Positions 1,999-57,564 of a stretch of DNA of 64,000 nucleotides are shown here, piece after piece. The notes beneath the pieces are model-generated. The model had not been told where the DNA came from and made no database searches. It worked only from the letters and a program-made list of their open reading frames with translations. This DNA is from a virus. The position numbers were made by a program, and so were the translations under genes. The DNA lies in the IMG/VR virus record IMGVR_UViG_3300036766_002281, positions 1-64,000 of that record. One strand, given 5' to 3'. The number at the start of each line of letters is the position of its first letter. The first letter of the stretch is position 1.

Positions 1999-3069
1999 AT
2001 GGCTAAAATTGCAATCTGTTCAGACATCCATTTCCATTCTTATTCAAGCTATATAACAACTGAAACAGTATTTAATGTTTTCGACCAAATTCTTACCTAC
2101 TGTGACAGTAATGGAATAGAAGATCTTTATATTTTGGGGGATCTATTTCATGTTCGTGGAAAAATTCCAGTAGTTGTTTTTAATCGTGTTCATGCCTTAT
2201 TCAAATGTGCTACAGATCAAGGAATCAAATTACATTTGATATCAGGTAATCATGACCAATGCTTCAACGAAGATTTGCAGACAAGTTCTATTTGTTCTCT
2301 TGCTGAAATAGATGGAGTAGATATTTTAAATTTCGAATCGTGGGAACTTGGTAAATGTAAGTTTGTAGGCATTCCTTATGTGAATACGAACAAAGAGTTT
2401 ATGAGTTATTTGGATAAGTACAAAGAAAGTATGTCTTCGGACAAGATCAATATCTTGTTTACTCATGGTATGGTAAAAGGCGCCGTAGTAAGTTCTGGGT
2501 ACAGTTTCTCGCATAGTACTGGGGTTGAAGAAGGTTTAAGATTTTTTGATCTAGCCTTTGTAGGCCACATCCATGAGACCCAACGTCTGTTTGATGGTAA
2601 GGTAATTATTACTGGAGCTCCGTTATGCCACAGTAAAAAGGATATGAATGGAGTTCAAAGAGGATTTTGGGTTTTAGACACGAATACAATCGATCTTGCA
2701 TTTGTGCCTACTAAATATCCTAAGTTTATATCAAACGTACTACATTCTAGGGAGGAACTATTAAAGTTTTTGAAAGATTTAACTCCATTTAACGTACAGG
2801 ATTTTATATTCTTAACAGTTACAGAACAGATTGAAGATCTTGAAGCCATTTTAAAGCCCTACAATAAATACTATATTGAAGTGGACGTTACGGCACCAAT
2901 AAAAAGAAAAGAAGCGAGACTGGAAACATCTTTGGCCGATTCAGAAGAAGCTATAGTAGAAAAATATATTCAAAAGTTTGGATCAGATTATAATTCTGAT
3001 TTGTTGAAACATATTTCAACTGAATTATTTGACGATTACAGCAAAATGATTAAAGAAAAGGTGGCGTGA
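1999..3069 (+). CDS. sbcD: Mre11/SbcD-like recombination nuclease (T4 gp47-like)
   Basis: Metallophosphoesterase motifs SDIH, LGDLF, GNHD, FTH, GHIH; Rad50 partner downstream. Confidence 0.9.
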   Translation: MAKIAICSDIHFHSYSSYITTETVFNVFDQILTYCDSNGIEDLYILGDLFHVRGKIPVVVFNRVHALFKCATDQGIKLHLISGNHDQCFNEDLQTSSICSLAEIDGVDILNFESWELGKCKFVGIPYVNTNKEFMSYLDKYKESMSSDKINILFTHGMVKGAVVSSGYSFSHSTGVEEGLRFFDLAFVGHIHETQRLFDGKVIITGAPLCHSKKDMNGVQRGFWVLDTNTIDLAFVPTKYPKFISNVLHSREELLKFLKDLTPFNVQDFIFLTVTEQIEDLEAILKPYNKYYIEVDVTAPIKRKEARLETSLADSEEAIVEKYIQKFGSDYNSDLLKHISTELFDDYSKMIKEKVA

Positions 3070-3311
3070 AAGGACAATCAAAATACCATAGCATCGAAGA
3101 AACTGCAGTATCCTACATTTTTGGCTTTGTTTTGGCTATCTTATCTCAACTGATTATTTTTCCGTTTTACGGATTGAAAGTTTCTTTAAGCGATAATTTA
3201 CAAATTACTGGATGGTTTACTATTGTTAGTTTAGTTAGAACTTACATCGTTCGTCGTATATATAATTATAGACAAGTGAGGGCAGGCAATGTCAGAAATT
3301 CCAGTTCATGA
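3066..3311 (+). CDS. Small two-TM membrane protein
   Basis: Two hydrophobic segments and basic C-terminal RTYIVRRIYN. Confidence 0.65.
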   Translation: MKGQSKYHSIEETAVSYIFGFVLAILSQLIIFPFYGLKVSLSDNLQITGWFTIVSLVRTYIVRRIYNYRQVRAGNVRNSSS

Positions 3312-3588
3312 AGTAGTTGTTAAAGTTTCAACTGTTAACGCGGTAAAGATCTGTAAAGGTCTTTTTACTAAGAGGTCTGATATAATAATAGGTATAGTAA
3401 AAAAAGTTGATATGTATGCCTATACTATCACAGTAACAAGACTGGGCAAAGATTTTGCTTTTGAGAGGTTCGATCAGATACTGACTTCAGATTATCGTTT
3501 TAGTAATCCAATACAAGCTAAAGAAGCAGGTTCTTTTTTTGTTGATGAAGTTATTGGTTTAGAAAGAACAGTAGATGGGGCTGAATGA
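3289..3588 (+). CDS. Hypothetical protein
   Basis: ORF overlapping both neighbours in operon style. Confidence 0.55.
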   Translation: MSEIPVHEVVVKVSTVNAVKICKGLFTKRSDIIIGIVKKVDMYAYTITVTRLGKDFAFERFDQILTSDYRFSNPIQAKEAGSFFVDEVIGLERTVDGAE

Positions 3589-3869
3589 TGTGGGAATTCA
3601 AAAAAAGAATGTGGGCAAAGTTTGAGAAGGCCTTCGAAAAAGTGGATGAGGCATTCGCTGAGGCAGATTCAGATTCAGCTTTCGGAGGGTTTGAAGCTTG
3701 TCCTAAGTGTGGTCATTGCAATATAAGTATAAAATATTGTAATGATGAAACTCATAGTTCCCACATTGTTTGGACAAATATGTGTGCAGGACATTATCAA
3801 CATGAGGTGCTTCATATACGTTGTAACGTTTGCAGTTATGAATGGATAACGCCAACGAAAGATAAATAG
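3585..3869 (+). CDS. Small Zn-ribbon protein
   Basis: CPKC and CNVC pairs. Confidence 0.6.
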   Translation: MMWEFKKRMWAKFEKAFEKVDEAFAEADSDSAFGGFEACPKCGHCNISIKYCNDETHSSHIVWTNMCAGHYQHEVLHIRCNVCSYEWITPTKDK

Positions 3870-3873
3870 AAAC

Positions 3874-4151
3874 AACTGTCACAATCGAGGTGGGAACTCG
3901 ACAGACGATAAAAGAAAAGTGAGTCTGGATTGAATAAGGGTGAGTTGGTCCCCGAATAATCATCTGGCCAATAGGTCTTGACCTGAATTGACAGGACAGT
4001 GGTTGTAAAATGGTGCCGGAGTTCCGGTGATACCGCAACGAGCAAGCCAGATTTTGATCGTTGTTTGGGTGTGAAACAGAGGCATGGGACCTCGCCATGA
4101 ACAACCCCACTTAGTGACCAAATCAAATCCGTTCGAATCGGATTGGCAGTT
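3874..4151 (+). ncRNA. Large structured RNA with tRNA-like acceptor, D and T arms
   Basis: AACTGTCA (3874-81) pairs with TGGCAGTT (4144-51); T arm ATCCG-TTCGAAT-CGGAT (4127-43); D-like hairpin TCGAG-GTGGGAA-CTCGA (3885-3901); several internal helices; GC-richer than flanks; no + strand ORF in the track. Confidence 0.65.
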
Positions 4152-4159
4152 TATAACCC

Positions 4160-4205
4160 TTTGGTGAGAAACCCCACTGAGTTTTCAGCCTCAGTGGGCA
4201 GTTCA
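4160..4205 (+). mobile_element. Orphan IS200/IS605 (TnpB) right-end / omega-RNA 3' hairpin remnant
   Basis: CCCACTGAG/CTCAGTGGG hairpin then CAGTTCA; closely resembles the end of the TnpB element at 35981-36016. Confidence 0.6.
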
Positions 4206-4221
4206 AAGAAAAGGATATCAA

Positions 4222-6474
4222 ATGATTACTTTCGAAAGACTAAGATTACAAAATTTTCTTTCTTTTAAAGAAGCTTCTTTAAACTTGGAGGCACAGGGAA
4301 TTGTAGCCATCGAGGGAAAAAACAATTCCAATAAATGTTTTACTTCGAATGGATCTGGCAAATCTACTTTGCTAGAAGCATTCTGTTGGGTTCTTTGGGG
4401 GGCAACAATCAGGGGTTACAAAGCTGACGAAATTATAAATACTAAAATAGGAAAGAATTGTGCTGTTGAGATATCTTTCAAGGATAACGCCGAAGTAAGC
4501 TGGGAAATAAAACGTTATCGTAAACATTCTGAATTCGGAAATAAAGTCTTTCTCTATCGAGAAGGTGGGGAATGGACTCAGAATGTAGATGTCCAGGAAA
4601 AGATAGACGAAGTGTTGGGCATGGATTTCAAAACGTTTGTTAGCTCGTTTATTTTCTTTAAGAACGATTCTAAATCCTTTTCGAACAGCACAGATTCAGA
4701 GCAGAAGAAGATGCTTGAAAAATTATACGATCTTGAAAAGTATTCTACCTTATTAACGATCGTACGGGATAAGATGGCTAAAGTAGTTTCCAATTGCCAC
4801 GCTGTTTCACTGGACATAAATGTGAATGAGCTCAAATACAATATGCTTTTAACCGATATTGATAAGTTAGAAAAGGATCGAGAAAAATTTGAGATAGATA
4901 AATTGGCAAAAATACAAGAACTTACTTCGAAGTTATATTTTTTGGAGACAGCGAGGGATGAAGAAAAAATCAAATTCGAAGTTGATAAGAAAAATCGAAT
5001 TAGAACTGTTGAAGCTGAAGTTGTAAAGGCTAGGGATCTTCTAAAACTAGAAGAATTTGATTTTAACATAACTAAAAAGAAAGATTTAGAAGAACTAGCT
5101 AATCAGTTGAAGATGTTGGTATCTAAACAAGCTATAAATAGTGATAATATTCCTGCCACAACAAAATCGGAACATACCAAAGAGTTAGTTGAGATTGATA
5201 GAAAATTACAGGATATTCAGAATAAGGTTTTCTCTCCTGATCTACCTACTTTGCAAAAAGGGTTGGAAAGTAATCAAAAGTACTTGAATCAGCTTGATGT
5301 TTCAATTCTTCAATTTTCTTCACAGCTGTCTGATTTGAAAACTAAAAAAGAGCATTTCGAAAATGATTTAGGAATTGAGTGTCCTTATTGCCTACAACCG
5401 GTTTCTCCTGGGCATCAAGAAAAACATATTAACCAGCTTTTAGCGTCCCTACAAGAAAAAAAAGCTGAGTATGATAAGGTAGTAACTTCCAAACGAGAAG
5501 CTAATGATGCTATAATACAGGTTAAGCAGAATATAAGAGCTGTTGAATCTCAAATGGAGACAGATAGAAAAACAGAACGTTCTTTGTTCAGTCTTAAATC
5601 AGACCTATTAACTAAATTACAAGTTGCTGATCAGGAGTTGTTGAAAATAGAGCGTAGCATTGATCAAGTAAGATTAAAAATAGAACAAAGAAGTAATGGA
5701 GAGTACTCAAATAGAACTGCTGAAACGAACTTAGAATTATTAAAAAATAAGGTGTTGGACTTTCAGAAAGAACAGTATTCGAATACTTCAATTGTTGTTA
5801 GTATTGAAACAACCAGTATTCAGTTAAAGAATACAAATTCTAGTACTTATTTAAATGAAGATACGATTGAGTACAAAAGTCAAGAAGCTGTTGAACTGCA
5901 TGAGCATAATTCCAAATTGAAAGCGAAAGAAAAAGATCTCAAGGAAAAGTTAAGACATTATGAATTTTTCGACGCTGCTTTTTCCAGGGCAGGCATACCT
6001 AGTTTTTTACTTGATAACATTCTTCCCACGCTGAATAAGTATGCCCAGTATTATAGCTCTATTTTAACCGGCGGTTTGATGAAGATCGAATTCAATAATC
6101 AATCTGCTTTGAAGTCCACCAAAGAGATAAGAGAAAAATTCGAAGTCAAAGTTTACGCCAAAGATGGGTCAGAATCGTATAAAGGCGATTCTAGTGGTGA
6201 GAAACGAAGAGTGGACCTCATTGTACTGTTTGCTCTACAAAAGGCGGCTATGACACGAAATAAGAGTAAATTTAACGTATTATTCCTCGATGAAGTTTTT
6301 GATACGCTAGATAAGGCTGGGTTAGAGAACGTAGTCGCTTTGTTGGAAGAAGAGGTCCAGACCTTCCCATCTATTTTCTGCATCTCCCATGATGATTTTT
6401 TAAGCAGTTACTTCGATAGCGTAGTAACAGTGCAGAAAGACGCCGACGGATTTAGTTCTATTATAGGTTCTTAG
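4222..6474 (+). CDS. sbcC: Rad50/SbcC-like ATPase (T4 gp46-like)
   Basis: Walker A NGSGKST, long coiled coil with CPYC Zn hook, signature SSGEKRR, Walker B/D-loop LFLDEVFDTLD, ISH. Confidence 0.93.
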   Translation: MITFERLRLQNFLSFKEASLNLEAQGIVAIEGKNNSNKCFTSNGSGKSTLLEAFCWVLWGATIRGYKADEIINTKIGKNCAVEISFKDNAEVSWEIKRYRKHSEFGNKVFLYREGGEWTQNVDVQEKIDEVLGMDFKTFVSSFIFFKNDSKSFSNSTDSEQKKMLEKLYDLEKYSTLLTIVRDKMAKVVSNCHAVSLDINVNELKYNMLLTDIDKLEKDREKFEIDKLAKIQELTSKLYFLETARDEEKIKFEVDKKNRIRTVEAEVVKARDLLKLEEFDFNITKKKDLEELANQLKMLVSKQAINSDNIPATTKSEHTKELVEIDRKLQDIQNKVFSPDLPTLQKGLESNQKYLNQLDVSILQFSSQLSDLKTKKEHFENDLGIECPYCLQPVSPGHQEKHINQLLASLQEKKAEYDKVVTSKREANDAIIQVKQNIRAVESQMETDRKTERSLFSLKSDLLTKLQVADQELLKIERSIDQVRLKIEQRSNGEYSNRTAETNLELLKNKVLDFQKEQYSNTSIVVSIETTSIQLKNTNSSTYLNEDTIEYKSQEAVELHEHNSKLKAKEKDLKEKLRHYEFFDAAFSRAGIPSFLLDNILPTLNKYAQYYSSILTGGLMKIEFNNQSALKSTKEIREKFEVKVYAKDGSESYKGDSSGEKRRVDLIVLFALQKAAMTRNKSKFNVLFLDEVFDTLDKAGLENVVALLEEEVQTFPSIFCISHDDFLSSYFDSVVTVQKDADGFSSIIGS

Positions 6475-10231: not shown

Positions 10232-10501
10232 ATGGAAGTTAGCCTTTTATCATTAGATCCTCGTTGGATTGAACATGACGAACACTATATTGGAATAGCA
10301 TTTACTTGCCCATTTGAAAAATGTCCTAGTGTTGCAGGAGATAAACATACAATCGGAGCCTATTGGGCTTATCCAGGTAAAAATAATTGGAAAAAGACTG
10401 GTGAGACGTTTGAGAACTTAACTCTTGAACCATCAATCGATGGTAGTCCAATGGGATGTTCCTTTCATGGACATATAATCAATGGAAAGGTGGTTTATTG
10501 A
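10232..10501 (+). CDS. Small Cys/His protein of unknown function
   Basis: FTCP...LTLEPSI...CSFHGHIING pattern. Confidence 0.6.
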   Translation: MEVSLLSLDPRWIEHDEHYIGIAFTCPFEKCPSVAGDKHTIGAYWAYPGKNNWKKTGETFENLTLEPSIDGSPMGCSFHGHIINGKVVY

Positions 10502-10848
10502 TGGAGGAAGAAAAACCTAAGAAAGTAACTTTGTCTGGTAAGGATCCAGAAGTAAATGATCCATTTCTCGGCGCTCCAGCTCCTATTGATCCTAAAACGG
10601 GAATGCATGGTGATTATTGGATTTTAAGCGATGAAGAACGAGCCAAAGGATATGTTCGTCCAGTTCGTACAAAGTATATTCATAAGACTTGTGGGGTTGA
10701 GACCGTAATGCATATTAAATTTGCTGAAACCTATGCAAGAGACCCAAAGTTTTATGGATCGACGTTTTGTGCTGGATCAAGATGTAGAGCTCATTTTCCG
10801 GTAAGTGAATTTTTGTGGTCGGATACGAAGGAAGAGGTAGGAAGTTAG
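10501..10848 (+). CDS. Hypothetical Cys/His protein (start refined to 10501)
   Basis: YIHKTCG...TYARDPKFYGSTFC...HFPVSEFLW; TGATG translational coupling to upstream gene. Confidence 0.6.
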   Translation: MEEEKPKKVTLSGKDPEVNDPFLGAPAPIDPKTGMHGDYWILSDEERAKGYVRPVRTKYIHKTCGVETVMHIKFAETYARDPKFYGSTFCAGSRCRAHFPVSEFLWSDTKEEVGS

Positions 10849-10937
10849 CTCAGGGGTAGTTCACATAAATCAAAACGCAAACGTAGGCAAACGAATAACC
10901 AGAAAATAGTAAACTTGAATGGAAAGGAAGAAATCAA

Positions 10938-33629: not shown

Positions 33630-34571
33630 TTGGAACAGAAAAGCATCCAGGTCAGCGTTCTTGGGATCGGTGGTTGTGGTGGTAACATCTTAGCAGATGT
33701 CTATGCTGATTTGAAAGATTCTACTACCCCTATTACTTATAGAATTATGAATACCGATGTTCAGGCGCTTTCTTTTGTAATGGATCGTGGTTTTCCAAAA
33801 GACTTTCTCACTCAGATTGGTGGTAATGCTACTCGTGGGTTAGGGGCAGGATCGAATCCCGATGTAGGACGTTCAGCAGCGCAAGAGGACATTACTGAGA
33901 TAAGAAGTTTGGTTACGGGAAAAGATCTGGTTATTGTTATTACTGGTCTGGGTGGAGGAACAGGATCAGGGGCTACTCCAGTAATACTTAAAGAAGCCAA
34001 AGAAGCAAATGCCCTGACAATGTGTTGTTGCGTAATGCCGTATTCTTTTGAATCAGCGGCAAGAAATAGTATTGCAAAGAAAGCCTTGAAAGAGATTGCA
34101 GAAACTTGCGATGCCTATCTTGCTGTATCAAACGACGCAGCAGAAAGCCTTGTTTTCAAAGACGTAATCAAGGAAATTAACAGTTCAGTATCTCAAGGTA
34201 TTCAAGTTACTTTAGACGTACTACTCAATGCCAGTTTAGTAAACTTAGATTTTGCAGATTTTACTACCGTAATAAAGAATGGAGGGAAAACATATTTTTC
34301 GTATGCTTGTTTCGATGGAGACAAACGAGACGAGAAAATAGTCAAGGAACTCACCAGATTGAAGTTATATCCTGGTGCATCTCTTAAAAAGATTCAACGT
34401 GCTGTCATATTTGTGCGCGGTGGATCTGATATGAGAAAAGAGGAGCTGAAAACTATTGTTAACTCTATTCAAGAAAAGCTATCGGAAGATGTGCTTGTGC
34501 TTATGGGGGTATCCGTCAAGGAATCTAAAAGTACTATCGAAGCGGCATTCGTTGGAGTTGTTGGAAATTGA
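33630..34571 (+). CDS. ftsZ: FtsZ-like tubulin-family GTPase
   Basis: GIGGCGGN, NTDVQAL, TRGLGAGSNPDVG, GLGGGTGSG, PYSFE, NLDFAD. Confidence 0.93.
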   Translation: MEQKSIQVSVLGIGGCGGNILADVYADLKDSTTPITYRIMNTDVQALSFVMDRGFPKDFLTQIGGNATRGLGAGSNPDVGRSAAQEDITEIRSLVTGKDLVIVITGLGGGTGSGATPVILKEAKEANALTMCCCVMPYSFESAARNSIAKKALKEIAETCDAYLAVSNDAAESLVFKDVIKEINSSVSQGIQVTLDVLLNASLVNLDFADFTTVIKNGGKTYFSYACFDGDKRDEKIVKELTRLKLYPGASLKKIQRAVIFVRGGSDMRKEELKTIVNSIQEKLSEDVLVLMGVSVKESKSTIEAAFVGVVGN

Positions 34572-34810: not shown

Positions 34811-36016
34811 TTAGGGGATGAATCGTAAAATTATAAAGTAAATGATAAAAACATATAAATATAGACTTTACCCAACAAAAAAGCAGGTTCAGAAACTAGA
34901 GCTTACTCTTGATATTTGTCGTATCCTGTATAATTCTTGTCTCTTGGATAGGAAAAATACTTGGGAGAAAACAGGAAAAGGTTTGTCTTACAATCAGCAA
35001 TGTGAAATTTTAACTCAAAACAAGAAAACTGTTTTATTCTTAAAAGAAATACATTCTCAGGTTCTCCAGGATGTCTTACTGAGAGTAGATAAGTCTTTTC
35101 AGAATTTCTTCAGGCGAATAAAACAAAAACAAGGTAAAGCCGGGTACCCAAGATTCAAGGCAATGAATCGTTACGATAGTTTCTGCTATCCACAAAGTGG
35201 TTTTGAAATTGTAGACGGTAAACTAAAACTCTCTAAAATCGGAACTATTAAGCTAAAACTACATAGAAAAATAGTAGGACAAATCAAAACTTGTACTATT
35301 AAGAAAGAACTTGATCGCTGGTACGCCTGTTTCTCGGTTGAACATCAACCACAAAAACGACCGGTACCAACCAAATCTATAGGAATAGATGTAGGCCTCA
35401 CCAATTTTGCTACTCTTTCCAACGTAGAGGTTATAGAAAATCCAAGGCATCTTAGAAAATCAGAAAACAAACTAAAACTGAAACAACGATTACTTTCTAA
35501 AAAAATTAAAGGTTCTAATAACAGAACCAAAGCCAGAACTACCTTAGCTAAACTGCATAGAAAAGTAAGAAACCAAAGATTAGATTTTCATCATCAAGAA
35601 AGTAGAAAGTTAGTCAACGAATATGGCTTTATAGCTGTAGAAGATCTACAAATCAAAAACATGGTTCAGAACCACCATCTTGCTAAATCAATTTCAGATG
35701 CTGGATGGGGTCAGTTTTTGTCCCTGCTCAAGTACAAAGCGGAAGAAGCTGGTAGTTGGGTAGAAAAAGTAGGAGCTTATTATACAAGTCAGATATGTAG
35801 TCATTGCGGTGAACTGGTCAAGAAAACACTCTCACAAAGAGTGCACTTGTGCACAAACTGTGGGCTGTTATTAGACCGAGATCATAACGCTGCTATAAAT
35901 ATTATTAATAAATCTACGGCAGGAACTGCCGGATTTCAAGCTTGGGGAGAAACGACGTATCAAAGTCCTTCGACGAACCAAGAAGTCACTGAGTTTTTAA
36001 CTCAAGGGTAGTTCAC
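34811..36016 (+). mobile_element. tnpA-less IS200/IS605 (IS1341-like) element with omega-RNA overlapping the tnpB 3' end
   Basis: Right end AGAAGTCACTGAGTTTTTAACTCAAGGGTAGTTCAC; only a short TTAGGGGATGAA left-end-like remnant; left boundary approximate. Confidence 0.65.
34842..36011 (+). CDS. tnpB: RNA-guided endonuclease TnpB (IS200/IS605 family)
   Basis: KTYKYRLYPT HTH, GYPRFK, RuvC GIDVG / VEDL / DRDHNAAINI, CSHC-CTNC Zn finger. Confidence 0.95.
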   Translation: MIKTYKYRLYPTKKQVQKLELTLDICRILYNSCLLDRKNTWEKTGKGLSYNQQCEILTQNKKTVLFLKEIHSQVLQDVLLRVDKSFQNFFRRIKQKQGKAGYPRFKAMNRYDSFCYPQSGFEIVDGKLKLSKIGTIKLKLHRKIVGQIKTCTIKKELDRWYACFSVEHQPQKRPVPTKSIGIDVGLTNFATLSNVEVIENPRHLRKSENKLKLKQRLLSKKIKGSNNRTKARTTLAKLHRKVRNQRLDFHHQESRKLVNEYGFIAVEDLQIKNMVQNHHLAKSISDAGWGQFLSLLKYKAEEAGSWVEKVGAYYTSQICSHCGELVKKTLSQRVHLCTNCGLLLDRDHNAAINIINKSTAGTAGFQAWGETTYQSPSTNQEVTEFLTQG

Positions 36017-42354: not shown

Positions 42355-44361
42355 ATGCCAGGAAATTTAATTAATATAACGGTAATGAATCAAAGCACTG
42401 TTTTAACTGACGGAGCTATTCTTGCTAGTATTCCTGATTTTCAAGTGCAGATTAGTAGAGATTTTGCCCCAGCATGGGGAGTAGATGCTGCCTTGAACTT
42501 TTTATCATCAAGCGAGATCGCAGATCATCCTGAAAAATTAGCAGACGTGGCTAATCATTATTGGCTAGTAATTTTGGATACAAGTGACGTTGCTTGTTTT
42601 ACAGGAGATACCAAAGTATCTTTAATGAATGGAACTGAAGTAACTTTTAAGGACCTTGTAGAAAAATATTCCGATAAACAATTTTATGTATATTCTTATG
42701 ATATTGAAAATCAGGAAATAGTTCCAGGGCTGGCACATTCCCCCAGACTAGCAAAACAGAATTCCAAACTAGTAGAAGTTGAATTAGATAATGGTGAAAA
42801 AATTAAATGTACCCCTGATCATTTATTTTTAATGAGAGATGGAACGTATAAAGAAGCTCAAGATTTGAAAGAAAATGATTCTCTTATGCCGTTGTATAGA
42901 AGTTTTACTGTTAAGGATCCGCATAAGAGAGTGAGAGTTGGTTATGAGTTATGTCATGCTGGCAGTTGTTCTGAAGAACAATTTACCCATTATTTATCTG
43001 GTAAGTTATCGAATACTGGCAGTTGTTCTGTTTGTGGTTCAATTCTTCCAGATTATGCTCATCAAATAAGACATCATAGAGATTTTAATAAACTAAATAA
43101 TTCTCCTGAAAATATCCAATGGCTTACTTCTCTAGAACATGCAGAGCTTCATCAACGTCTTTCTAGAAATCTTGCTATGTATGCTAAAACAGAAAAGCAT
43201 AAAAAAAGAGCTAGTGAAACGTTGAAAAAATGGTGGCTATATTCCCGAGATATTATGTTAGAAGGTTGCCGTAAAGGAGGGGCTTCTGTTGATGGGACAA
43301 AAAATCTTATGGAATGGAATAAATCTGAAGAAGGTAAAAAGCTTTCACTGGAAATGGTTGATAAATTTTTAATACCTTATGCTAGATCTAAAGAAAATAG
43401 AGAAAAAATGAGATTGCTAGGTCCAGAAAGACTAACAGCTTACAATGTATCAGATAAGGGAAGATTAAAATCGAGAGAAACAGCTTTAAAAAAGCATCGT
43501 GAAGGTATCTTAAATCCAAAAGAGTTTGTAACGCAATTGCATAAAGAAGGAAAACTTCCAGGATTTAATAATCATGATAGATGGCATGTAAAAAGAGAGA
43601 TTAAAAAAGAAGATTGTATAGATTGTAATTTAGACACTTTGTTTGAAAATTGTGTTCCTGAAGCCATGAAAGAATTGCAATTTAATCACAAAGTAGTATC
43701 GGTAAAATTTCTTAATCATGTTGAAGATGTTTATGATATTACCGTAGAAAAATACCATAATTTTGCTTTGACCTCAGGAGTTTTTGTACATAATTCAGCT
43801 CTCGGATATCATGATTTGAACCCAGCGGGTTATCCTATTTCAAAAGTATTTGCAAAATCTGATCTAGACTATGGGACTAGCTGGACTAATACAGTAAGTC
43901 ATGAATTATTGGAAATGCTGGCGGATCCGAATATTAATAAAACGGCTCAAGTACAAGATCCAGGAACTGGAAGAGATGTTTTTTATGCTATCGAAGTGTG
44001 CGACGCCCCGGAAGCAGACCGCTACGGGTATCTGATTAATAATACCTTAGTATCTGATTTTGTATTTCCAAGCTGGTTTCAACCTTTCGGCCGAGCTCCT
44101 TTTGATCATTGTAACCATATCACTGCTCCATTTCAATTGATGCCTGGTGGGTATATTGGAAAGTATGATTCAGCTCAAGGGGGCTGGACTCAGGTAACTG
44201 CTGAATCTGTGACATCTGCGAAGGTTATTCTGCATCAAGGTTTGTCAATTGATTCGTTTAAAAGATCTTACGGTTCTATTCCAAAAGTTGGAAGTCGTAG
44301 GGAACGTAGAAGCAGGCCTCACTATCAATGGATTCATAGTCAAATCAAATCTGGGTCATGA
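42355..44361 (+). CDS. Metallopeptidase-like protein (SHELLEMLADP) interrupted by an intein
   Basis: Spliced exteins read DTSDVA|SALGYHD...SHELLEMLADP...EVCD. Confidence 0.7.
   Translation: MPGNLINITVMNQSTVLTDGAILASIPDFQVQISRDFAPAWGVDAALNFLSSSEIADHPEKLADVANHYWLVILDTSDVACFTGDTKVSLMNGTEVTFKDLVEKYSDKQFYVYSYDIENQEIVPGLAHSPRLAKQNSKLVEVELDNGEKIKCTPDHLFLMRDGTYKEAQDLKENDSLMPLYRSFTVKDPHKRVRVGYELCHAGSCSEEQFTHYLSGKLSNTGSCSVCGSILPDYAHQIRHHRDFNKLNNSPENIQWLTSLEHAELHQRLSRNLAMYAKTEKHKKRASETLKKWWLYSRDIMLEGCRKGGASVDGTKNLMEWNKSEEGKKLSLEMVDKFLIPYARSKENREKMRLLGPERLTAYNVSDKGRLKSRETALKKHREGILNPKEFVTQLHKEGKLPGFNNHDRWHVKREIKKEDCIDCNLDTLFENCVPEAMKELQFNHKVVSVKFLNHVEDVYDITVEKYHNFALTSGVFVHNSALGYHDLNPAGYPISKVFAKSDLDYGTSWTNTVSHELLEMLADPNINKTAQVQDPGTGRDVFYAIEVCDAPEADRYGYLINNTLVSDFVFPSWFQPFGRAPFDHCNHITAPFQLMPGGYIGKYDSAQGGWTQVTAESVTSAKVILHQGLSIDSFKRSYGSIPKVGSRRERRSRPHYQWIHSQIKSGS
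42595..43794 (+). mobile_element. Intein (400 aa) with HNH endonuclease
   Basis: CFTGDT start, CTPDHLF block B, HHRDFNKLNNSPENIQ HNH, VYDITV...HNF...VHN|S end. Confidence 0.92.
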
Positions 44362-46755: not shown

Positions 46756-47046
46756 ATGTATATGGTTACTGGATATACCAATTACTTTCGAGACAAATGG
46801 AAGCAACAATTCCAGGAAGAGCCATCTGTTGAAAAACTAAACAAGCAGATGGATCTCAGCATAAGGATTCAGCCTTACTTGATTTTCTGGGACAGTAAGG
46901 CAGCAAAACTGGTAAAGATTCTTGCCTCGTATTGGATTCCTGATAGTAATATCGTTGTGAAGGTGGATTTTGAAAGCAAGTCATTCGTAACGTACTACTC
47001 ACCTCAAGATATTACAAGTGAGGTAGAAAAGGTAGTAGGAACATGA
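46756..47046 (+). CDS. Hypothetical protein
   Basis: Operonic ORF, ATGA overlap. Confidence 0.55.
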   Translation: MYMVTGYTNYFRDKWKQQFQEEPSVEKLNKQMDLSIRIQPYLIFWDSKAAKLVKILASYWIPDSNIVVKVDFESKSFVTYYSPQDITSEVEKVVGT

Positions 47047-48944
47047 CAGATTTTGTTGATACGTTAACAAAAGTAAGGCATAAAATTAAGAATCCATACG
47101 CAAAGGATGAACTAGAGAGCTTAGATTCAGCAGGCGGTCTTGGATCTGGATCTCGTGGTCCTGGGGCTGATGGCATAGATATGAATCCAACTCCTAAGTA
47201 TAAACCAAAACGTTTAGAGAAAGCGCCTACACCAAACAATCCAGACAAAGATGCTGTTGAGTGGCTGGATAAATTATCCTTCGCCAACGCCTTCGATCAA
47301 ACCCTTCTTCGATTAAAAAATCAACTTACAGGATCAGTCTTAGACTATCCAAAGCCTGGACTTGACCCGCAAATTTGGCAAGCTGATGGTACTTTACATC
47401 CAAACATTAAGCATACGATCCTGAAAAAGATTGTAGACTTCTTCAAAGAGAAGGGCATTAACAAACATATTAGAAGAGTAGTAAAGTATGTTTACATTAT
47501 CGGATCATTGACTTCCTATCAATACAATTCTAAATCCGACCTTGATACCCACATTGGAATCGATATTGATGATTTGAAAAAGGCTTTGTCCAAAACTACT
47601 TTCTGGGTAAGCGATGAAGAACTTGCTGATCTATTGAATAAGCATTGGAAAGACGAACTAAACGAAAAGGAACCAGTTCTAGCTCCGGGAACAGAACATC
47701 CACTTGAATTTTATTTTGAGATAAAAGGTTATACTGGAGCTGAAAGAGCTGACGGAGTTTACAATCTTCTAAAGGATAAATGGATACAAGAACCAAGAAC
47801 AGTTGATTATGATTTCGATCTTGATGAGCTGTATCCAAAAGTTATTGACGAGGCTTCTCATTTCTTGAAGTCAATGGATGCAGAGCTTGGGGATGTTAAA
47901 CGAACTATTAGTGATATAGCTTTTTTGAAGGAAACCTTAGCACGATTTCCAAAGGAAAAGCGTAAACTTTTTAAAGAAAAAATAAGAGAGAAGATAAGAG
48001 ATATCAATTTTTCCATTCAAGAACTTGTAGAAAAAGGGCAGAATATAATCGATGAACGTAAAGAAAAATATAATCCACTGGCTCCTTCCAATATCCATTT
48101 TAAGTATCTACAACGCTATGGTTACATCTGGCTTATAAAACAGCTAGAAGAAGTTCTTGAAGACAAAATGACAGAAGAAGTGAGTGTGCAAGACCTTGAA
48201 GATGTCAAAGCCGTTCAAGAAGTTTTAGATCAGTTTGATTGCTTAGAAGATAGCACAGTAAAATTATCAGAAGCTCAAGTTATTTATGAGGACAGCACTA
48301 TCCAGACTTCAGAAGTTTCAAAAGAAATATTAGATCAAATACGTGGCATTCAGAAGACCATCGATAAGGATTTACTATCTCACGATGAAGATGCTCGTGG
48401 TTGGGTACATGGTGGAATGCAGGAACTTCTTCACGTAACGGTTTTATTCGGAGTTAATGCAGAAGACTTTGAAAAAGCAAAAGAGATATGCAAAGACTTT
48501 AAAGATATTGAGATTGAGGCTACTCACGTTGACTATTTTGATGTGGATACGAAGGAAGGTAAGTTTTCTTGCGCCGTAGTAAAATGTAGTTCCCCTAGGC
48601 TAGAAGAACTTCATAACAAATTAAAGGATAATCTCGAAAATAAACACAAGTTTGATTACAAACCTCATATTACCATTGCCTACTTACAACATGGAAGTAG
48701 ATTAGGGGATATTGAGTTTAAGCCGGTGAAATGGATAGTAGGTGATCTCGAAATGGGTATGCCTGATGGAAGTTTAAAACGATTGGCAACAAAATCTGAT
48801 TTTGAAATCTTATTTGGTGGTAGGGTGGATAAAAAATATGAAAGAAAACTAATTAGCTTTCTTACTATTAAATCAAAGGATAAAGTAGTAGAAGTACTGG
48901 AACGTATCAATAATGGAGAAGATGTAGCAAATGTTATACTTTAA
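47043..48944 (+). CDS. Pol-beta-type nucleotidyltransferase fused to a 2H phosphoesterase (T4 gp57B/Acb1-like)
   Basis: IIGSLTSYQY..KSDLDTHI; C-terminal LHVTVLFG and YKPHITIAY (two HxT motifs). Confidence 0.75.
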   Translation: MTDFVDTLTKVRHKIKNPYAKDELESLDSAGGLGSGSRGPGADGIDMNPTPKYKPKRLEKAPTPNNPDKDAVEWLDKLSFANAFDQTLLRLKNQLTGSVLDYPKPGLDPQIWQADGTLHPNIKHTILKKIVDFFKEKGINKHIRRVVKYVYIIGSLTSYQYNSKSDLDTHIGIDIDDLKKALSKTTFWVSDEELADLLNKHWKDELNEKEPVLAPGTEHPLEFYFEIKGYTGAERADGVYNLLKDKWIQEPRTVDYDFDLDELYPKVIDEASHFLKSMDAELGDVKRTISDIAFLKETLARFPKEKRKLFKEKIREKIRDINFSIQELVEKGQNIIDERKEKYNPLAPSNIHFKYLQRYGYIWLIKQLEEVLEDKMTEEVSVQDLEDVKAVQEVLDQFDCLEDSTVKLSEAQVIYEDSTIQTSEVSKEILDQIRGIQKTIDKDLLSHDEDARGWVHGGMQELLHVTVLFGVNAEDFEKAKEICKDFKDIEIEATHVDYFDVDTKEGKFSCAVVKCSSPRLEELHNKLKDNLENKHKFDYKPHITIAYLQHGSRLGDIEFKPVKWIVGDLEMGMPDGSLKRLATKSDFEILFGGRVDKKYERKLISFLTIKSKDKVVEVLERINNGEDVANVIL

Positions 48945-57478: not shown

Positions 57479-57515
57479 CTTTTTGAATTTTGAATTTTAG
57501 TGGTTTTTAAAACGA

Positions 57516-57559
57516 ACTCCCTTTAAAATGGATTTAAATTGATTCATTTTAAAGGGAGT
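57516..57559 (+). promoter_or_regulatory. Hairpin sequestering the SD of the protease gene
   Basis: ACTCCCTTTAAAATG / CATTTTAAAGGGAGT perfect 15-bp inverted repeat ending 5 nt before the GTG start. Confidence 0.7.
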
Positions 57560-57564
57560 GCCTA

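Follow-up and report, generated by a model that had tools for sequence, protein, structure and literature searches.

The window, by which we mean the whole stretch of DNA that was analysed, comprises the first 64 kb of a 74.6-kb IMG/VR record of an uncultured phage from a sediment metagenome. Close to its start lies a series of genes, all of them on the plus strand: an Mre11/SbcD-like phosphoesterase (1999-3069), three small ORFs (3066-3311, assigned to DUF7220; 3289-3588; and 3585-3869, which encodes a cysteine-rich product of 94 aa), and a Rad50/SbcC-like ATPase (4222-6474) with a ribosome-binding site at about 4209-4214. The 94-aa ORF and sbcC are separated by a non-coding gap of 352 nt (3870-4221), most of which is occupied by the candidate RNA that is the subject of this report (3874-4151, 278 nt, plus strand). 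A preliminary description had placed the candidate between sbcD and sbcC. This is loosely worded, as the candidate does lie 5' of sbcC, but the three small ORFs (3066-3869) intervene between the sbcD-like gene and the gap.

The gap differs from the rest of the record in size and composition. It is the largest plus-strand non-coding stretch (352 nt, the next being 168 nt), it contains no ORF on the plus strand, and it is the only gap that is rich in GC, with a content of 0.463 (0.46-0.475 across measures) against 0.28-0.38 in the other gaps. The genome mean is 0.375 (sd 0.039), and the phage's own copy of tnpB (see below) has a GC content of 0.36. No promoter or terminator was predicted for the candidate. 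The record is devoid of tRNA genes detectable by ARAGORN and of tRNA enzymes, and its 74.6 kb encode no TROVE/Ro protein, SmpB, CCA-adding enzyme, tyrosine or serine recombinase, or TnpA.

The two ends of the candidate, together with the segments next to them, form an outer frame that resembles a tRNA. An acceptor-like closing stem joins 3874-3881 to 4144-4151, the latter segment including a discriminator-like U with no CCA after it; the stem consists of 7 bp (A3875-A3881/U4144-U4150), one of them a G.U pair, with an optional eighth pair between 3874 and 4151. Directly abutting its 3' strand, with zero spacer, is a T arm (4127-4143) composed of five Watson-Crick pairs (4127-4131/4139-4143) and the loop UUCGAAU, closed by a G53-C61-type pair, so placed that T54, Psi55, C56, purine 57 and A58 are found at the same loop positions as in tRNA; stacked together, the two helices make 12 bp. 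On the 5' side, 3 nt past the acceptor strand, there is a D-like hairpin (3885-3901) of 5 bp with the 7-nt loop GUGGGAA, and next to it a hairpin in the position of an anticodon arm (3902-3927), in which CAGAC and GUCUG enclose a purine-rich loop of 16 nt containing AAAGAAAAG. All four outer helices are intact, with 22 pairs, of which one is G.U. The pair equivalent to 3:70 is U3877-A4148, and CCA is not encoded. On these points the preliminary description is borne out by the sequence: it had reported an acceptor-like stem of 7-8 bp stacked on a 5-bp T arm with a TTCGAAT loop, a D-like hairpin with a GG-containing loop, and the lack of both CCA and a G3.U70 pair.

The nonamer AAAGAAAAG has two copies, one at 3911-3919 within the loop (16 nt) of the anticodon-like hairpin, the other at 4205-4213 in the ribosome-binding region of sbcC. 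Both copies are complementary to UUUUCUUU at 4253-4260, in the early coding region of sbcC. Judging from this complementarity, alternative pairings could mask or free the sbcC ribosome-binding site.

The resemblance to tRNA is confined to part of the molecule. The acceptor/T-arm stack is present; a canonical D arm, a canonical anticodon arm and variable region, and recognition by tRNA finders are absent. On the D side, the acceptor strand is followed by a 3-nt spacer (CAA), a 5-bp stem and a 7-nt loop, and there is neither a U8 nor a nucleotide 26, while on the anticodon side the loop has 16 nt and 199 nt separate the anticodon-like hairpin from the T arm. As it has no 7-nt anticodon loop, the candidate cannot decode. 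ARAGORN reported no genes in the record at default settings, with the intron option or at relaxed thresholds, and it still rejected the frame once the insert had been virtually excised. A search of 356 nt against all Rfam models, including tRNA in local mode, gave no match at E <=10. In agreement with the preliminary description, the candidate is not a normal tRNA or tmRNA, since ARAGORN and Rfam recognize neither, and the same searches returned no strong match to any known family.

Several more specific identities were considered and set aside. An interrupted true tRNA or an intron-containing tRNA is contradicted by the failed excision test and by the lack of a complementary anticodon-stem strand beside the T arm. 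Two of the suggestions made in the preliminary description are not supported: a very divergent tmRNA, because there is no G3.U70 pair, no tag frame (ARAGORN -m, default or relaxed) and no match to a tmRNA model; and a Y-RNA-like species, because there is no TROVE/Ro gene, no YrlA match and the topology is wrong. In the latter case, PF05731 (TROVE) is absent from the 74.6-kb record, itself only ~43% complete, and RF02553 (YrlA) gave no match. A tRNA fragment of the attP type is not indicated either, as the record contains no PF00589 or PF00239 integrase and the flanks are the sbcD-side small ORFs and sbcC. Nor does the stretch interrupt a gene in the manner of an intron or IStron, given that the upstream ORF has its own stop codon and SbcC aligns to its homologues from residue 1-2; the group I intron model RF00028, which is known to miss some subgroups, had no match at E <=10. 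Finally, a tnpB pseudogene was rejected on finding no TnpB protein similarity in any of the six frames.

To express how unusual the frame is, we defined a strict T arm as GTTCRAWYC together with five Watson-Crick pairs. Strict T arms occur once per 3 Mb of Markov sequence, which corresponds to 0.025 expected per genome of 74.6 kb, and the one at 4127-4143 is the sole example in the record. Given a T arm, the probability of an acceptor partner within 60-450 nt with a GG hairpin behind it is 0.05. The full strict frame is expected ~0.001 times per genome, a rate at which it would still arise by chance many times among ~250,000 windows. A relaxed frame (relaxed T arm plus acceptor partner) is common, with 1.3 per genome, and an acceptor partner alone is found by chance in ~35% of cases, which makes the closing stem weak on its own. 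Real loci from phages and bacteria, 1.57 Mb in total, contain 63 strict T arms, of which 59 belong to ARAGORN genes, three to likely tRNA-like genes, and one is unexplained. Three strict T arms without an ARAGORN call (L082:6534 on the plus strand, L088:1657 and 1383 on the minus strand) have acceptor partners 63-94 nt upstream and lie in phage tRNA arrays; these are likely unrecognised tRNA-like genes.

Predicted folding of the 278-mer is compatible with the frame. Its minimum free energy (MFE) fold itself contains the outer frame, and forcing the three arms changes the energy by +0.5 kcal/mol relative to the MFE. When the 278-mer is folded in isolation, the ensemble assigns the closing stem a pair probability of ~0.9, the D-like hairpin 0.93, the anticodon-like hairpin 0.84 and the T arm 0.55; once 270-350 nt of flank per side are added (3600-4500), neither the closing stem nor the D hairpin is retained. 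The position of the variable arm is taken by a central domain of 199 nt (3928-4126), for which the MFE fold consists of irregular long hairpins and in which a candidate closing helix (3941-3950/4116-4125) has a probability of ~0.5. An interior of ~225 nt is indeed found in place of the anticodon and variable regions, as the preliminary description had stated, but the inner-helix architecture that it listed is not supported. The complementary words on which those helices were based (ATCTGGC/GCCAGAT, TTTGAT/ATCAAA, GTTGTT/AACAAC and others) exist, with an ensemble probability of 0.00, and the complete structure model has an energy of -19.2 kcal/mol, compared with -85.8 kcal/mol.

The region is also exceptionally stable for this genome. 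With an MFE of -109.4 kcal/mol, 3874-4216 ranks below all others among 53 sampled windows of 343 nt (mean -72.4, sd 9.3), and its z-score relative to shuffled sequences is -3.0 to -3.2; the single sampled window with a lower z-score contains a 19-bp terminator hairpin. In a comparison of strands, the z-score is -2.05 for the plus strand and -0.79 for the minus strand, which folds no better than its shuffles. That hairpin, which is perfect and followed by a U run, constitutes a strong intrinsic terminator at 57479-57564, 3' of the portal gene and a small ORF.

Searches for relatives of the gap covered a wide range of sequences. No homologue was detected by blastn against phages, by blastn against plasmids, by megablast of 12 kb, or by blastn and nhmmer in 160 SbcC loci from IMG/VR and JGI metagenomes and in 80 TnpB loci taken from GTDB. 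Scanning IMG/VR for patterns yielded nothing beyond ordinary tRNA arrays and one gene each for an adenylate cyclase and a repeat protein. Scans of IMG/VR and JGI metagenomes with the SbcC and TerL proteins likewise revealed no close relative of the phage; the best SbcC relative (P0002, from Logan) is 39% identical. Because no homologue was found, not one base pair of the frame is supported by covariation. Among 137 other SbcC-like loci, the gap upstream of the gene has a median length of 0 and a maximum of 170 nt, and none reaches 250 nt; the gaps of 150-170 nt in two of them (L006 and L054) contain a terminator and a tiny ORF, and in Kayvirus the genes overlap at the equivalent position. As it is unmatched in these 137 loci, the gap 3870-4221 is taken to be a lineage-specific insertion into a string of genes, from sbcD to sbcC, that is otherwise closely packed. 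The sequencing runs that hold the sequence are three sediment DNA runs, with no RNA run among them. One of them (X2) contains a near-identical strain, represented by fragments that cover 3679-3940 and 4162-4505 and that carry two indels in the tail and ribosome-binding region; with no cover at 3941-4161 and no joining contig, this run is uninformative on the presence or absence of the interior.

Between the frame and sbcC, outside the RNA, the plus strand at 4163-4208 contains GAGAAACC, a 9-bp hairpin (4173-4181/4190-4198) and GGCAGTTCAA. From its sequence, this segment is probably a short relic of an IS200/IS605 end. An 11-mer is common to this segment and the end of the phage's own tnpB, and a targeted alignment to the 3' end of that gene gave p=0.006 for the tail and p=0.52 for 3870-4159. 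In a generic Smith-Waterman test across the genome, the tail did not reach significance, and the TnpB-family profile and covariance model R1, run with filters off, had no match anywhere in the gap. The intact tnpB of this phage, with its omega-RNA 3' end and right end, is found at 34842-36016 on the plus strand (the gene itself at about 34842-36011), and is likely to represent the source lineage of the relic. Within the gap we also observed a direct repeat, AACCCCACT(T/G)AGT, at 4102-4114 and 4170-4182; its copies are 68 nt apart, on either side of the T arm, and each of them is a possible pairing partner for the 3' strand (4190-4198) of the tail hairpin.

The TnpB family to which this element belongs is very large, with thousands of members at 60-79% identity. 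We aligned the last 130 nt of 24 members (alignment A3, model R1; loci L172-L249, and 35883-36016 of the phage). These 3' ends have in common a conserved hairpin, a stem in which CCTGG pairs with CCAGG over a long range, a terminal hairpin that covaries and, as an invariant end, GGTAGTTCAC; compensatory changes are found at 15 pairs of the omega-RNA 3' part, for which Rfam contains no family matching either the window or 16 TnpB-family loci. The left end of one member (L172) carries the same motif, consisting of CAAGAAG-CC, a hairpin and GGTAGTTCAC. An origin of the 278-nt stretch from the omega-RNA scaffold or from tnpB was rejected (p=0.52, no match to R1, no TnpB similarity and no left-end similarity), as was the idea that the T arm is the omega-RNA stem located 5' of the conserved TGGGGAGA (p=0.17-0.52, no match to the covariance model). 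The segments 4063-4116 and 4121-4160 are collinear with the omega-RNA 3' region by eye only (p=0.17-0.52).

Other features of the window concern mobile elements or the nature of the phage. Immediately past the stop codon of the ORF at 10456-10848 lies CTCAGGGGTAGTTCAC (10849-10865), which agrees at 15/16 bases with the end of the phage's tnpB element and, on this resemblance, is probably a second degenerate IS200/IS605 end. A helicase-like gene (42355-44361) is split by another selfish element, an intein with an HNH endonuclease (Pfam Intein_splicing, Hint and HNH_3). About 270 nt upstream of tnpB is a gene for a tubulin/FtsZ-family GTPase (33630-34571), which suggests a large, jumbo-type phage; the same proteins were found elsewhere on a contig of 211,832 bases. 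The gene at 47043-48944 encodes a protein of 633 aa with a C-terminal 2H-phosphoesterase domain (2'-5' RNA ligase superfamily, anti-CBASS Acb1-like), for which the PHROGs label is 'RNA ligase'.

We compared the candidate with known RNAs in which parts of a tRNA serve ends other than decoding. The tRNA-like stable RNAs of phages T4 and T5 are similar in being phage-encoded and non-decoding, with an acceptor/T-arm frame for host enzymes and a replaced interior. Those RNAs (rnaC/rnaD, or "species 1 and 2", in T4; RNA1/RNA2 in T5) are ~120-145 nt long, lie within tRNA gene clusters and have relatives, whereas the candidate is ~278 nt with a 225-nt interior, stands alone between recombination genes in a record without tRNA genes, and has no relative that we could find. 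The Y RNAs of the YrlA type (RF02553) are non-coding RNAs with a tRNA mimic that comprises a T arm and a D arm. The ends of YrlA build the Ro-binding stem, a loop closes its acceptor end, and its genes are located next to rsr; in the candidate it is the acceptor stem that the ends build, and neither a TROVE gene nor a match to the model is present in the record. The tmRNA (SsrA) is of a similar size class, and its ends likewise form an acceptor stem and T arm around a large structured interior. The candidate differs in its U-A pair at 3:70, in the lack of a tag frame, an Rfam match and an encoded CCA, and in its D-like stem, which is absent in tmRNA.

The t-elements of plant mitochondria resemble the candidate as non-canonical tRNA-like folds that possess a T arm and lie beside protein genes in long transcripts (PMC1920247). 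They are only ~70-80 nt, are derived from tRNAs and have experimentally mapped ends, while the candidate is four times larger. To the right end of IS200/IS605 elements, and thus to the omega-RNA 3' end, the likeness is that of the tail at 4163-4208, which has the motif, the hairpin, AGTTCA and the 11-mer of the phage's tnpB end; elements of this type do have ORF-less derivatives, namely PATEs and ORF-less IStrons (PMC4227781). The 278-nt candidate, in contrast, is unlike omega-RNA, left end and tnpB; the covariance model is silent, and no group I core was detected. By analogy, the candidate would work most like the T4/T5 stable RNAs and the t-elements, and it is a member of no family that we tested.

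The explanation that we favor, tentatively and as something short of an even chance, is that 3874-4151 could be a tRNA-framed non-coding RNA that is excised by RNase P and RNase Z and carries a payload in its interior. This reading is founded on the rarity of the frame and the specificity of its T arm, the size and GC content of the gap, the folding and the intact helices, the non-coding nature of the stretch, its status as an insertion, and the literature. As no promoter or terminator of its own was found, we propose that the candidate would be transcribed within a long plus-strand operon message. The acceptor/T-stem stack, with its 12 bp and true T loop, would then be the part measured by RNase P, RNase Z and the CCA-adding enzyme, and the GG-loop hairpin would be placed so as to close the elbow with the T loop. 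Cleavage by host RNase P before A3875 and by RNase Z after U4151 would release a stable RNA of ~277 nt, in which the 225-nt interior (the hairpin with the 16-nt loop and the 199-nt domain) could be the functional payload; the excision would also split the upstream message from that of sbcC.

Borrowing of the tRNA elbow for processing by RNase P and RNase Z, an interpretation already offered in the preliminary description, appears by analogy to be the most economical mechanism. RNase P is known to bind the stack of T stem-loop and acceptor and to measure from the elbow, the D loop being dispensable (PMC4919913), and the non-canonical, tRNA-like t-elements of plant mitochondria direct RNase P and RNase Z cuts within mRNAs (PMC1920247). 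We infer transcription, processing, stability and any function of the RNA from these considerations. What the preliminary description had observed is thereby partly confirmed, and what it had made of the observation is partly supported; the decoy role that it also suggested is neither favored nor contradicted by these results. A bolder form of the proposal, which we consider unlikely, is that the candidate would be the first of a novel class of phage non-coding RNAs of large size (~280 nt), in which a tRNA-type handle recruits host tRNA-processing enzymes that excise and stabilise a 225-nt payload, and that its gene may have been brought into the recombination-gene cluster as cargo of, or beside, an IS200/IS605 (TnpB) element. 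Against an excised RNA stand the lack of a homologue and of recognition by Rfam or ARAGORN, the non-canonical D side, and the closing stem, which is weak alone and lost with flanks; a frame of this kind is, moreover, expected by chance in a scan of many windows. The adjacent IS-end relic shows that mobile DNA has passed here, in a phage that also harbors tnpB and an intein, no promoter or terminator specific to the RNA was predicted, and the record is without tRNA genes and tRNA enzymes.

The main rival explanation, rather unlikely in our estimate, is that the stretch is an inert remnant of the passage of mobile elements: foreign DNA of higher GC content would have arrived, or been left behind, with an IS200/IS605-type element, the tnpB of which was later lost. 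Part of this DNA may be a tRNA or tRNA-like gene in decay, the frame then being a functionless fossil. The tail (4163-4208) fits this history both in its resemblance to the phage's tnpB end (p=0.006) and in its hairpin-plus-AGTTCA architecture, which is that of the family; a second degenerate end is present at 10849-10865, and the occurrence of the ~45-nt motif at both ends of an element (L172) indicates how recombination could leave a solo end. The phage contains other selfish elements (tnpB and the HNH intein), and the gap, which stands out as an insertion against 137 other loci, has no homologues, as would be expected of junk. Other observations speak against this explanation. The 290 nt 5' of the tail are unlike the tnpB 3' end (p=0.52), the family profile and covariance model, the left ends and the TnpB protein, and the GC content of the gap (0.46-0.475) does not match that of the phage's tnpB (0.36). 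Furthermore, all 22 of the 22 outer-helix pairs are intact, which would not be preserved under decay, and the lowest folding energy of the sampled windows is unexpected for junk in an AT-rich phage.

It is also conceivable, if quite improbable, that the element acts only in cis, as a leader that processes or regulates the sbcC message through t-element-like punctuation or translational control, without producing a stable trans-acting RNA. Its location on the coding strand of sbcC, directly 5' of that gene and lacking a promoter or terminator of its own, would suit this role, as would the precedent of the t-elements (PMC1920247) and the presence of AAAGAAAAG in a loop and in the ribosome-binding region, both copies being complementary to UUUUCUUU; A/U-rich 8-9-mers are, however, weak evidence. 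The 137 other SbcC loci do without such a leader, no riboswitch or leader family was matched, and 280 nt is far beyond the need of a processing signal. We regard it as very unlikely that the likeness to tRNA is coincidental and that the region is instead a DNA-level site for replication or recombination, or some other structured RNA with a T-loop hairpin. T loops do turn up in RNAs that are otherwise unrelated (PMC4919913), chance readily produces the relaxed frame, the D side departs from the canonical form and genes for DNA metabolism surround the region. The strict frame, on the other hand, has a joint expectation of ~0.001 per genome and is anchored at the left edge of the gap, 5 nt past the upstream stop codon; no direct-repeat iterons were seen, and the minus strand folds no better than shuffles, which argues for an RNA rather than a symmetric DNA structure. 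A protein gene on the minus strand (ORF 3703-4110, 135 aa) is scarcely credible. Its open frame is unusually long for an AT-rich genome, but it belongs to no Pfam family, has a marginal PHROGs match (E=0.066) and three weak matches to unrelated repeat proteins among 1.84 billion representatives, and overlaps a plus-strand ORF by 167 nt in a neighborhood where all genes are on the plus strand.

Should the stretch prove to be only a relic, it would serve as a cautionary case, in which a near-perfect frame, high GC content and strong predicted folding are insufficient without relatives or transcripts. The relic of a TnpB transposon end alongside the candidate also raises the question of whether such elements carry RNA genes between phages. 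If the RNA proposed here is real, it would extend the known set of non-decoding, tRNA-shaped phage RNAs to one that is much larger and that is found outside a tRNA cluster, in a phage without tRNA genes, and it would provide a natural example of a tRNA handle that frees a large RNA from an mRNA.
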